Positions 16,477 through 48,993 of a stretch of DNA of 64,000 nucleotides are shown piece after piece; the first letter of the stretch is position 1; each line of letters begins with the position of its first letter. The stretch comes from an uncultured Poribacteria bacterium (GTDB lineage: Bacteria > Poribacteria > WGA-4E > WGA-3G): positions 4,064,001 to 4,128,000 of the forward strand of contig CATQHZ020000001.1 in NCBI GenBank assembly GCA_958296135.2, written 5' to 3'. Under the pieces are notes generated by a model that was given only the letters and a program-made list of their open reading frames with translations, was not told the origin of the DNA and made no database searches. A program made the position numbers and the translations under genes.

Positions 16477-16611
16477 TGTGTTTAAAAGCAGGTATGTTAT
16501 CCATCGCATTTGGCAAGGGAACCTTCTTCCTCCCGGTGCCCCAGGCATAATGAGAGAAGTTCAGAAAAAGTTGGGTCATTTGTCAAAAGATGCCCCACAA
16601 AGGAGCAAATC

Positions 16612-17403
16612 ATGCACACGAGACTTGATAACCCATCGGCCGACGAACTTTTTGCGAACACTGAGCGTGCCATTGCGTCTACTCCGCTCCTCAGCACTGA
16701 GGAGGAGCAGGCGTGCGTGAGAGAGGGGACTGAGGAAGCACGCATACGGCTTATTGAATCTTACATGCCGCTCGTGAAATCGATCGCCTTTGGTTACAAC
16801 GGCTGCGGCGTTGATGTCAAAGACCTTTTCCAACAAGGCATGATGGGGCTCTGCAAAGCCGTAGATAAATATCAGCCGGGCCGCGGCAGACTCGGTGCCT
16901 TCGCCCGGCATTTTATCTCTGGCGAGATACGCTGTTATCTCAATAAGGAGCAAACGCTGCTCCACCTCCCGAGCCCACTGCGCCGCTCAGTGAATAAGTT
17001 TCGCCGCGTGTGCAGGCAACTGGGCGAAGGCACAACAGACGAGGCTATCGCAGCGGCGATGGGATGCGATGTTGAGCACGTGCCCTGTTTTCGCGACTGC
17101 GCGGAACATCGCTTTGAAAGCCTCGATGCACCTGTGGGCGACGGGGACGATGCGGAAACGCTAGGGGAGACAATTGGAGAACTTGACCCGGGCTTCGCTG
17201 AAGTTGACGCGAAACTGACCGTGGAACAGCTGCTGTCCAAACTCTCTCCGACAGCGCGCGATGTGATACGCCTGCGGTATGGATTTGAAGGCGAACCGAT
17301 GAGTCTCCGGGAGGTAGGCACGCATGTTAACCGCTCCCATGAATGGGCGGCGAAAGTAGAGCGCGCGGCGATAGCGAAACTCCGCGAACACGCACAACGA
17401 TAA
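16612..17403 (+). CDS. Sigma-70 family RNA polymerase sigma factor (divergent, group 3-like)
   Basis: Region 2 DLFQQGMMGLCKAVDKY, region 3 SLDAPVG, region 4 VIRLRYG..MSLREVG; AAGGAG RBS. Confidence 0.9.
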   Translation: MHTRLDNPSADELFANTERAIASTPLLSTEEEQACVREGTEEARIRLIESYMPLVKSIAFGYNGCGVDVKDLFQQGMMGLCKAVDKYQPGRGRLGAFARHFISGEIRCYLNKEQTLLHLPSPLRRSVNKFRRVCRQLGEGTTDEAIAAAMGCDVEHVPCFRDCAEHRFESLDAPVGDGDDAETLGETIGELDPGFAEVDAKLTVEQLLSKLSPTARDVIRLRYGFEGEPMSLREVGTHVNRSHEWAAKVERAAIAKLREHAQR

Positions 17404-17462
17404 AAAAAAGCGCGGATGTTGCGAAATGTTCATTTTTTCTGTCATTTTTCTCATTTTTCCTG

Positions 17463-17571
17463 CAGAAAAAGTTGACAGTTTGGAATTTTCAGCACATATT
17501 AAGGGTATGGAGCCTGACATTTTCATTTTCCGGTCGGCTTCTTCCGTTTTTCTACAGAAAAAGTTGACAGT
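17463..17571 (+). repeat. 17-bp direct repeat containing TTGACA (possible tandem promoters)
   Basis: CAGAAAAAGTTGACAGT at 17463 and 17555. Confidence 0.7.
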
Positions 17572-17748
17572 CGGTGGGACACTCTGTGGTACCCGAGTTT
17601 ATACGAGAACTACATACGTCTACCCGGCTGAACACTATATTTTGTTGTCGGATAACACGATTTTTCACGTAGATCACGGCGACACGTGGGTGAGTTTTCC
17701 ACGAGAGTTCCGGGTTAAGACCGCGACGAAAAGAACGCGCGCGGAATT

Positions 17749-18102
17749 TTGAACACCGAAAACATGGACGACGATGAAATCGCAGCAGCGACATATCATC
17801 AACTCCTTGAGCAGTTCGGCGATATGCCGGAGGTTCATACCTATCATGAATTGAGCCGGAAATTTGTATCCGGACTCACCCTAGAAGAGAATATCGCCTT
17901 CGTTGAAGCCGCGCAATTCTTGTTTCCTAATGAGACGAACCGGAAAACTCTTGTGTGGTTAAAGTGGCGCCAAGCCAAAGAGATAGACTTACCCGCAGGG
18001 GCCATAGCCGAACCCACAGAAGAAGATCTGGCGTATCTCTATAGTCACGGAATTCAAGTGATGCGCACGCCAACGAGTCTGACTATCTATACGGGGCCCT
18101 AA
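17749..18102 (+). pseudogene. N-terminally truncated/frameshifted paralog of 21825..22511
   Basis: Shares QL.E.FGD.PEVH.Y...EE.IAF.EA.QFLFPNE..RKT with 21825..22511 but lacks its N-terminal TM segment; upstream frame stops at 17752. Confidence 0.55.
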
Positions 18103-19946: not shown

Positions 19947-20987
19947 TCATCCAAAATACCGGCGCACAAAGGGCCACGCACCCGCCTTGTAATACCGATG
20001 CCCACCCTCGCCGATGTAAAGTTCACACCGCTCCGGCACGCCTGCCACCGAGTAAATCGCCCTCAGCCGTTCATACGCCAACTCAACCTGAGCGATGGGG
20101 AAAATGCCATCATCGCGCCCAGCAATCGCACAGAACGGACGCGGCGCGATTAAACCGGCGACATCATACATCTCACCTAACCGCATCAACCCCGGCACAT
20201 AGTTGCAATCGCAGTGGTGAATAGTGCCGATGCTCCCCTCAAACGTGCAGAAATAGCAACTCGGCACAGCGACAGCAATGCGGGTTTCACACGCAGCAGC
20301 GAAGAGCGAGACGGTGCCGCCGCCCGAATTGCCGGTAATCGCGACGCGCTCCGCATCTACCGGCAGGTTCGCAATCGCCCAATCGATAAGACGCGACATG
20401 TCCCACACCCGCTCGCCGATAGGTGTCCTGCCGACGAGCATGCTATGCACCAGTTCCTCGCGGCAGGAGTTTGTCCGGTTGGCGCGCTTCGCCGCTTCCG
20501 TGCGAGTCTCGCCGAACGCGCGCGTCGTCGGCGCAATGGCGATGTACCCCTCCTCAACAGCCGCTTGCCGGGCGATATCGCGTTCACCTGCCAGCATCTC
20601 CTCCTCCTCTTTCTCGTTGTGCGCAATGCCAGCGTAGAGATGCGGATGGTTATGTCCGTGCGGCGCGAGAACTAACGGCAGGTTTCCCGCAATCGTCTTC
20701 GGCAGCAGCAAATAAAACGGCAGCGGCACCGACGGTTCTACCCACAGATGCCAACTTTCGCGGACATGGTTGCCCATGTCCAACGATTCGGTGCGTTCCG
20801 CTCTCGGCACGTAACCTGCCAAATCAGATTCCATGTTATCCAAACCGAGTGCTTCACGCAGTTTCGGGCGAAAAGCGGCTTGCCATGCCTGCAAGCCCTC
20901 CCGGGAAGTCACCCGAAATTCGTAGTCCCTCGGCACAGAGGCGTATAAAGATTCAAAGTGTTGCGCGGCATTATAGGTGGTTTCCAT
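19947..20987 (-). CDS. Alpha/beta hydrolase (dienelactone hydrolase/acetylxylan esterase-like)
   Basis: PHGH, GNSGGG nucleophile elbow, GRDD, GGHRY. Confidence 0.85.
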   Translation of the reverse strand: METTYNAAQHFESLYASVPRDYEFRVTSREGLQAWQAAFRPKLREALGLDNMESDLAGYVPRAERTESLDMGNHVRESWHLWVEPSVPLPFYLLLPKTIAGNLPLVLAPHGHNHPHLYAGIAHNEKEEEEMLAGERDIARQAAVEEGYIAIAPTTRAFGETRTEAAKRANRTNSCREELVHSMLVGRTPIGERVWDMSRLIDWAIANLPVDAERVAITGNSGGGTVSLFAAACETRIAVAVPSCYFCTFEGSIGTIHHCDCNYVPGLMRLGEMYDVAGLIAPRPFCAIAGRDDGIFPIAQVELAYERLRAIYSVAGVPERCELYIGEGGHRYYKAGAWPFVRRYFG

Positions 20988-21104
20988 GATGCGACTCTCC
21001 TCAAAATTTGGTTTTTTCTTGACAACGTTCACAATTTTGTGATAATCTATGGATATGCAGTATACACGAACTCTCAATATAGGGCAACTTACGCGTAAAA
21101 TGAA

Positions 21105-21207
21105 AAAAATCGGACACTTTGAAGATTTTGGTCGACATTGAAGATATGCACGCTTTTTTAATCAAAAATCGGGCGTTTTTCACGTTTTGGTCGACCTTAA
21201 AAATAGA
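21105..21207 (+). promoter_or_regulatory. Tandem ~44-bp imperfect direct repeat (59-bp period), promoter/operator-like
   Basis: AAAAATCGG...TTTTGGTCGAC.TT.AA.ATA at 21105 and 21164. Confidence 0.6.
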
Positions 21208-21219
21208 ATCGTGAGTTTC

Positions 21220-21738
21220 CTGCAAGGCGCGAAATCCTTCGGACGCGGCGCGATTTTCCGGAGACTTCTAATTGTCCATGACAAGCTACGTCCAGCGGAA
21301 TGTAGTTGACACCCTTGAGGCCTGTGAAGATTGCCGCGGGCCTCAATACTAGCACAAATAGAGAACCACGAAACGGTCAATGGCCTAGTTAACAAGGCGC
21401 GTCAACGCGCCTGTCTTTGGCATGGCGCACGATGCAAAACAGGAAGAGCATAGACAGCTCTCGGCCGCCTTAATCAGGGCTACCTAATATAGGCAGTCAA
21501 ACTGAGAGGATGAGCGGAATAAGCGGCGCGTAGCCAAAAGCGGATATGAACACTATCCGCCTTAACCTCCGAAGGGCGCAGCTAGAAGCGCGTCTACGGA
21601 CGGCTGGTAGCGCGCACTGTGCCATGCGAGCCTGCACAGTGACGCACTACAAACTATCTTACGAAGATACCCGTCCAGACGGTTTATGAGATGACTTCCG
21701 GAGCCATTTAGTTTTCGGTTTCGTCGCGGAGCATTGCG
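21220..21738 (+). ncRNA. Candidate large structured non-coding RNA
   Basis: No credible ORF; about ten helices with G-U pairs plus nested long-range 5'/3' pairings. Confidence 0.5.
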
Positions 21739-21824
21739 CGCACCAATTGCCGTAGTGCAGGAGCACCTGCTCCCGCACTACGGGGTGGGAAAGTTAAATG
21801 GCTCTGTGACAATCGAGGTGCATT

Positions 21825-22511
21825 ATGCGGAAACTTGCGTTTGCTGCTATCATCGTGCTGCTCGCCGCCGGCATCATCTTCATCTATGCCGAATGGGAGA
21901 AAAAGCACTTCACCGAGAATCTCCCGAAACCCCCGGCAAACATGGAGTCACCCGATACATCGTCAGAGGAGGAGCCGTCGTCTACCCTTGAGGTACCTCC
22001 TGCGTCGCAGCACCAAGGCACACCGGAACAACTAGAGCAGGATAGCGAGACAACTTCCGGACAACTTACCACGGAAGAAGACGATTGGCCAACCGTGCCC
22101 CATCCTTATCGCCACGGCCACGCACGGACACCTGATCCGGGGAGAAACGAGAACACTGCCACCCAGGAAACATCTGAAGCCATGAGTGACGACGAACTTT
22201 GGGACCGGGACCTGAACCAACTCATCGAACGGTTCGGAGATATCCCCGAAGTTCATGCCTATCTGGAATACGACCGGCGGGTCAGAACCGGACAGCACAT
22301 CACGCTCGAAGAGGATATCGCTTTTCTTGAAGCGATGCAGTTTCTGTTCCCTAATGAGGCGACTCGCAAAACAATCCTCCTCAAAAAATGGGAATTGAAA
22401 AATGGTTTCATCTTGCCAACGGCAGCGGATTTGGAGTACTTCAAGAGTGAGGGCATCACGGTGCTCTACCATGAGGACGGCTCTCTCAAGAAAATCACTA
22501 CGAAGTATTAA
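21825..22511 (+). CDS. Membrane-anchored hypothetical protein (FGDxPEVH family)
   Basis: GAGG RBS, N-terminal TM, acidic linker, conserved C-terminal domain shared with 17749..18102. Confidence 0.8.
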   Translation: MRKLAFAAIIVLLAAGIIFIYAEWEKKHFTENLPKPPANMESPDTSSEEEPSSTLEVPPASQHQGTPEQLEQDSETTSGQLTTEEDDWPTVPHPYRHGHARTPDPGRNENTATQETSEAMSDDELWDRDLNQLIERFGDIPEVHAYLEYDRRVRTGQHITLEEDIAFLEAMQFLFPNEATRKTILLKKWELKNGFILPTAADLEYFKSEGITVLYHEDGSLKKITTKY

Positions 22512-48895: not shown

Positions 48896-48993
48896 CCATT
48901 CCTTGAGTGCGGGAGACAGGCCCCGCGCTACGTTCCAGGAGCACATCAGGCTGTAGGGAAACCAGCTCGCCCGATACGGACCTGTTTCGGACA

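Follow-up and report, generated by a model that had tools for sequence, protein, structure and literature searches.

A hairpin-rich intergenic region of a Poribacteria genome is probably a lineage-specific mosaic carried as a long 5′ untranslated region

Introduction

Several large ornate RNAs of bacteria are held in Rfam (OLE, GOLLD, ROOL, HEARO, and raiA), and a region of about 500 nucleotides (nt) in the genome of an uncultured Poribacteria bacterium is like them in its length, its many helices, and its intergenic position. Does this region encode another such RNA, or do its hairpins have some other origin? It lies at positions 21220 to 21738 of a stretch of 64,000 nt, here called the window, which is G000:C1:4064001-4128000 of a 5.19-Mb genome in 4 contigs; the record titles of the relatives name Candidatus or uncultured Poribacteria metagenome-assembled genomes (MAGs). 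The region sits in an 837-nt gap flanked by two divergent genes. The upstream gene (19947-20987, minus strand) has weak alpha/beta-hydrolase/esterase matches, and the downstream gene (21825-22511, plus strand) encodes a protein of 228 amino acids (aa) with a hydrophobic segment at its N terminus and no Pfam match; together with its ribosome-binding site, GAGGTG, this gene spans 21813-22511.

A sequence-only reading of the window had proposed that the region is an undescribed large structured RNA, closed end to end by nested helices, or a very long regulatory leader for the 228-aa gene. The long-leader option fits better than the undescribed large structured RNA. We consider it likely that 21145-21811 is a lineage-specific non-coding mosaic, probably a passive long 5′ untranslated region (UTR) of the 228-aa gene, whose hairpins are the palindrome-rich DNA typical of this genome. 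Unlike the ornate RNAs, the region has no Rfam match, no cross-species conservation, no strand bias, and no adjoining IscB/TnpB gene.

Results

The sole syntenic genome in our comparison, that of the sister species G002 in the same genus, aligns with 20000-21144 at 86% and with 21812-21935 at 87% nucleotide identity, and between these conserved flanks its DNA is unrelated over ∼1.4 kb and includes an open reading frame (ORF) of 262 aa. G001, which represents the third species in the genus at 86% completeness, yielded only paralogs of at most 33% identity and no ortholog of the locus. Two more distant orthologs (L026 and L027) are preceded by upstream regions of 170 to 540 nt. None of the regions upstream of the L026, L027, and G002 orthologs shows similarity to 21206-21698. 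We infer an origin by insertion, in which DNA would have entered this lineage between two promoter-like motifs (D1, described below) and the ribosome-binding site, with different DNA at this place in G002. The 262-aa ORF of G002 (L006 3257-4045) itself has an N-terminal hydrophobic segment, and relatives of it at 32 to 64% identity lie elsewhere in the genome that carries the window.

By BLAST, the region is single copy in the own genome, and a BLAST search with 21145-21824 found no homolog in the 111 other genomes of the family (112 including self). Pieces of at most 53 nt matched in 17 non-self genomes and were accounted for by a 70-nt element (G002 only), a repeat arm, and a REP core, and nhmmer against all loci compared likewise recovered nothing beyond the 70-nt element and the repeats. 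Covariance models were built from the single sequence for two parts, R1 (21562-21680, 36 bp) and R2 (21280-21392, 33 bp), and each matched 1 of the 112 family genomes, self only; a search across more than 40 genomes applies stricter filters, with which weak matches may be lost. Plasmid and phage collections held no match to the region, and a scan of metagenome contigs with the 228-aa protein gave 117 pattern matches and no relatives. The homolog search by which the sequence-only reading would have had its candidate followed up thus yielded none in the family genomes beyond the repeat and 70-nt pieces, and with no homolog no covariation is computable for the region. Among the sequencing runs listed as containing the region there was no RNA run. 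Contigs from four DNA-type runs of one sample, which may be the source of the assembly, were identical across the region and contained neither variants nor joints.

Rfam 15, in which the lack of a hit would speak for novelty according to the sequence-only reading, gave no match at gathering thresholds across the whole window. At an E value of ≤10, 20900-21900 matched only mir-3179 (16.6 bits, gathering score 90) and Afu_514 (14.2 bits, gathering score 39), both rejected as chance matches to eukaryotic families far below their gathering scores. The faint likeness to HEARO/omegaRNA that had been suggested fell away, with no Rfam match and with flanking genes that are neither IscB nor TnpB.

Several parts of the segment could be assigned individually. 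A ∼70-nt element on the plus strand (21373-21442), composed of the hairpin AGGCGCGT-caac-GCGCCT and a 3′ tail, is common to G002, with 91% identity over 53 nt. G002 has the element twice, at duplicated loci, each time directly 3′ of the stop codon of a sigma-70-family gene, and here it would represent the displaced flank of such a gene. A remnant of the G002 sigma gene on the 5′ side of the element was considered and rejected, the similarity ending within about 16 to 30 nt.

At 21540-21560 lies the hairpin GCGGATA-N7-TATCCGC, present at 11 sites in the own genome, itself included (at most 3 mismatches in 20, with a chance expectation of ∼0.3 sites); GGGCGGATATGAACGACATCCGCCC is the sequence of the other copies, and an extended consensus is common to the copies. 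REP/BIME sequences, known from enterobacteria and pseudomonads, are repetitive extragenic palindromes, and the 21540-21560 hairpin, a short palindrome with many dispersed copies, is of the REP type. A second, REP-like hairpin at 21750-21783 (CCGTAGTGCAGGAGCA / TGCTCCCGCACTACGG, 16-nt arms, 94% complementary) has similar hairpins elsewhere in G002 and raised 20-mer counts at 21764-21772. Both hairpins share with REP/BIME the form of short imperfect palindromes with dispersed intergenic copies, single or arrayed; they differ in that the sequences are specific to Poribacteria, and most of 21220-21738 is not repeat.

The 21750-21783 hairpin forms the core of a larger palindromic element of 108 nt at 21699-21806, whose inverted terminal arms are multicopy. 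The 16-nt arms (21701-21716 and 21789-21804) are 88% complementary and belong to an inverted repeat of 16 to 18 bp. Taken alone, the 113 nt at 21696-21808 form a self-fold of −57.6 kcal/mol (z = −5.5), which persists when 21150-21840 is folded whole. With up to 4 mismatches in 20 allowed, the own genome has 57 sites for the left arm (∼4 expected by chance), only 7 of them with a recognisable partner within 400 nt, and a further 16 genomes of the family contain matches to the arm. The element is absent upstream of the G002 ortholog and ends 6 nt before the ribosome-binding site, where homology with G002 resumes (21812). With terminal inverted repeats and multiple copies, 21699-21806 resembles a miniature inverted-repeat transposable element (MITE), and its small size, its arms at 57 sites, and its absence at the orthologous G002 site agree with this; it differs from MITEs in that no target-site duplication was identified in the flanks by eye, and only its termini are common with a 146-nt family described below.

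Roughly 400 nt (21206-21372, 21443-21539, and 21561-21698) are single copy and match no repeat family. A 20-mer scan allowing at most 5 mismatches gave raised counts at 21236-21248, 21388-21420, 21540-21544, and 21696-21726 and background counts in the rest; the first of these was rejected as a repeat, being a chance or coding-like match. This single-copy remainder holds strong hairpins, including a perfect 8-bp stem (21284-21307) and a 12-bp stem (21315-21346), neither of which has another copy in the own genome or the 111 other family genomes, and a single-copy domain closed by GGACGG/CCGTCC (21598-21676) with two hairpins inside. Folding of subregions gave a z of −3.8 for 21280-21412 and −4.3 for 21536-21680. 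The single-copy hairpins, above all those at 21315-21346 and 21607-21650, are explained only by the general palindrome richness of the genome. Resolution of the region into decayed REP copies, named in the sequence-only reading as one outcome that would undo its candidate, is therefore partial: one part resolves into repeats and the remainder does not. In composition, the segment 21145-21811 is a mosaic of a duplicated promoter-like motif, the 70-nt element known from the sigma-gene flank in G002, the REP hairpin, the 108-nt palindrome, and ∼400 nt of unique, hairpin-rich DNA.

The plus strand upstream of this DNA carries a sigma-70-like promoter candidate at 21019-21046 (TTGACA, a 16-nt spacer, TG, and GATAAT, with 11 of 12 consensus matches), inside the 20000-21144 block conserved in G002 (86% identity). 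D1 is a 42-nt direct repeat on the same strand in which an A-rich tract is followed by a promoter-like motif (..GGACAC..TTTTGGTCGACATTGAAGATA); copy a occupies 21105-21146, and copy b, a tandem copy 76% identical to it, occupies 21164-21205, 59 nt downstream. The exact word TTTTGGTCGAC is found in the own genome at both D1 sites and at one other site only. In G002, the D1 motif lies upstream of the 262-aa gene and of a 217-aa paralog, and in L027, a more distant ortholog, a D1-related motif closely precedes the ribosome-binding site. From its layout (an A tract, a TGGACA-like box, 17 to 18 nt, and a CATTAA-like box), we infer that D1 is the putative promoter of the 228-aa gene family. A reading of TGGCATGGCGCACGATGCA as a sigma-54 promoter was rejected; its GG-to-GC spacing, counted by eye, of 13 nt (12 nt in G002) differs from the 10 of the sigma-54 consensus.

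A consensus scan found no plus-strand terminator between 21100 and 21824, and with none between the motifs and the gene, the segment is probably carried as a long 5′ UTR. It would most likely be transcribed passively in front of the downstream gene, and an effect on mRNA stability or translation, if any, would be a by-product. A weak terminator might be formed by the 21395-21412 hairpin, a point against such read-through. Of the leader proposed in the sequence-only reading, the position thus stands, with promoter-like motifs upstream and no terminator in between, and the regulatory role is conjectural.

That role deserves a fuller account. A cis-regulatory leader would act through the structured 5′ UTR, especially 21699-21806, to control how the 228-aa mRNA is translated or how stable it is. 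The position fits, and in the predicted folds, read in dot-bracket form, ACUUC (∼21691-21695) pairs with GAGGU of the ribosome-binding site as an extension of the palindrome stem, a pairing that nevertheless comes to only 5 bp. The leaders of the orthologs are unrelated, with another gene in between in G002 and 170 to 540 nt of dissimilar sequence in L026 and L027, and no riboswitch or leader family matches the region. In favor of regulation is also the company that the gene family keeps, since its members are recurrently paired with sigma-70-family genes, and a leader might respond to the neighboring sigma-factor system. Weighing the dissimilar ortholog leaders and the short pairing against these points, we regard a regulatory leader as unlikely.

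The pairing with sigma factors was seen at several loci. Paralogs of the 228-aa membrane-protein gene recurrently follow sigma-70-family genes, as at 16510-17403 with ∼17704-18063 in the window, at G000:C1:2504643-2502491, and at the G002 loci L003 and L006, and in G002 the sigma-family gene and the paralog are separated by DNA with the D1 promoter-like motif. In these pairs, a sigma factor may be matched with a gene family that is dedicated to it as target or partner and lacks Pfam annotation. By eye, we also noted a promoter-like direct repeat (..CAGAAAAAGTTGACAGT..) at 17455-17580, 3′ of the sigma-family gene in the window, in 2 copies ∼90 nt apart.

We then come to the fold itself, on which the case for a structured RNA was built. 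All 12 string pairs listed as helices in the sequence-only reading are present at about the positions given there and can pair when G-U pairs are allowed (GCGCGAAATC starts at 21227, versus 21228 as given). The plus strand of 21220-21738 folds at −192.8 kcal/mol (z = −4.16), a minimum free energy (MFE) that none of 100 shuffles equaled, and a repeat with 30 shuffles gave a z of −4.0. Stems of at least 8 bp number 5, against 1.1 ± 1.3 in dinucleotide shuffles (5 of 300 shuffles reach 5), and stems of at least 7 bp number 9, against 3.8 ± 2.5 (19 of 300 reach 9). The simple hairpin content is real and modestly above chance.

Such a fold (z of −4.2) is the first point in favor of a young, species-specific structured noncoding RNA (ncRNA) that is transcribed from D1 and acts on its own, either as an ornate RNA of ∼500 nt or as a small RNA (sRNA) of ∼200 to 270 nt running from D1 to the hairpin at 21395-21412. 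The end-to-end closure proposed for it is not upheld, because its 3′ partners (21696-21727) belong to the left arm of the self-folding inverted repeat 21701-21716/21789-21804; the closing helices overlap this repeat element, and the interval, in ending at 21738, cuts the palindromic element in half. The C(UUCG)G string at about 21235, reported as a loop near 21237, lacks a stable stem, the fold of 21222-21262 having a z of +1.39 and being equaled by 190 of 200 shuffles.

The strand on which the structure lies is a further point. G-U pairs had been taken as a sign of selection on the plus strand, but the minus strand folds equally well, at −194.3 kcal/mol (z = −3.97), and G-U pairs make up 12 of 154 pairs in the plus-strand MFE structure and 17 of 166 in that of the minus strand. 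Among 12 local segments, some of them nested, 5 fold better on the plus strand, 5 on the minus strand, and 2 equally. Three local hairpins clearly favor the plus strand, and the single-copy hairpins at 21284-21346 and 21574-21595 speak for a young RNA in this respect: the 8-bp stem at 21284-21307 reaches −7.6 kcal/mol on the plus strand versus −4.0 kcal/mol on the minus strand, and the 12-bp stem at 21315-21346 reaches −20.5 versus −13.3 kcal/mol. The 21598-21676 domain gives −37.3 kcal/mol on the minus strand versus −33.0 kcal/mol on the plus strand. Overall, the structure is without strand preference, which argues against an RNA acting on its own.

We also compared the fold with that of other long gaps of the genome. 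Once every ORF of 100 aa or longer on contig 1 had been marked, 125 gaps of 500 nt or more remained uncovered, of which 49 were sampled in random order, and the central 519 nt of each were folded along with 15 dinucleotide shuffles. The median z was −2.4, with 19 of the 49 gaps at or below −3, 9 at or below −4, and the strongest at −8.7. The fold of the region is therefore ordinary for this genome, because its z is matched by these 9 other long gaps. Three tRNA genes lie in one of the 9, and no match to any other Rfam family was found in this set. When 5 of them were examined for repeats, 4 proved to be arrays of REP-type palindromes (G000:C1:3049263-3049864, 398965-399636, 134370-134926, and 1691804-1692401, corresponding to L034, L035, L036, and L038, with z of −6 to −9), among whose palindromes are CGAGACCGGGAGGTCTCTCCTAC and GGCGAGGGCCTGTCCCTCGCCCTACGG. 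L035 also has a tandem array of 23-nt period, for which 17 overlapping copies were reported. REP-like palindromes are likewise found directly upstream of paralogs of the 228-aa gene.

A young RNA could further claim the promoter-like motifs directly upstream, the terminator-like character of the 21395-21412 hairpin, which follows a gene stop codon in G002, and the lack of an Rfam match, by which it would be new. It is missing, however, from the only syntenic relative despite flanks that are 86 to 87% identical, and it has no homolog in sequence or structure in the 111 other family genomes. We hold such an RNA to be very unlikely. The same low standing applies to its narrower form, in which the core at ∼21210-21700 would be a recent species-specific RNA from D1, either an sRNA ending at 21395-21412 or a sensor leader for the 228-aa gene, and for which we see only a slim chance. 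The undescribed large structured RNA of the sequence-only reading does not survive these comparisons, being without a homolog, absent in the syntenic relative, without strand preference, in part repeat DNA, and ordinary in its z.

A decayed gene can be dismissed: with the 262-, 234-, 284-, and 217-aa proteins of G002 and the own 228-aa protein as tblastn queries, all matches in 21000-21830 had E values above 0.2, and when 21100-21824 was translated in six frames and compared with the own genome, no match fell below an E value of 0.03.

Discussion

With the ornate-RNA candidate not upheld, the direct importance of the region is small. The mosaic reading has a wider bearing in that the long gaps of Poribacteria are full of REP- and MITE-like palindromes, which produce strong fold z scores and apparent nested helices on both strands. 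In such palindrome-rich gaps, the density of hairpins alone is no evidence for a structured RNA. None of the Poribacteria papers listed by full-text search appeared to deal with REP, MITE, or ncRNA. Were the young-RNA reading true in spite of the points above, it would be a case of a new structured RNA arising from palindromic repeat debris. The D1 motifs, for their part, accompany pairs of sigma-factor and membrane-protein genes in the relatives.

A near-identical coding stretch was seen in at least 7 copies in the genome (G000:C1:1522157, 1931487, 3036599, 3386925, and 4547963 on the plus strand and 4516949 and 961079 on the minus strand), and its translation is presumably similar to the N terminus of TnpB proteins of the IS605 family. 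No copy adjoins 21220-21738.

The 146-nt inverted-repeat family may merit separate study. It is dispersed, has arms in inverted orientation at its termini (CAGAGCCATTTAGTTTTC...), and contains several hairpins internally; examples are G000:C1:4741514-4741655, 3074188-3074336, and 2524386-2524530, together with 21699-21806 (termini only) and 48952-48987 (partial) in the window. A profile built from 7 full copies gave 130 nhmmer matches in the own genome, 27 of them near full length, and 21699-21806 matches this profile at both termini only, its core being unmatched. Eight copies had no Rfam match at an E value of ≤1. The element may be a MITE, or it may represent a family of structured RNAs. 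Its ends are conserved across genera of the family, and in a 12-copy alignment the internal hairpins, judged by eye, seem to vary on both sides.
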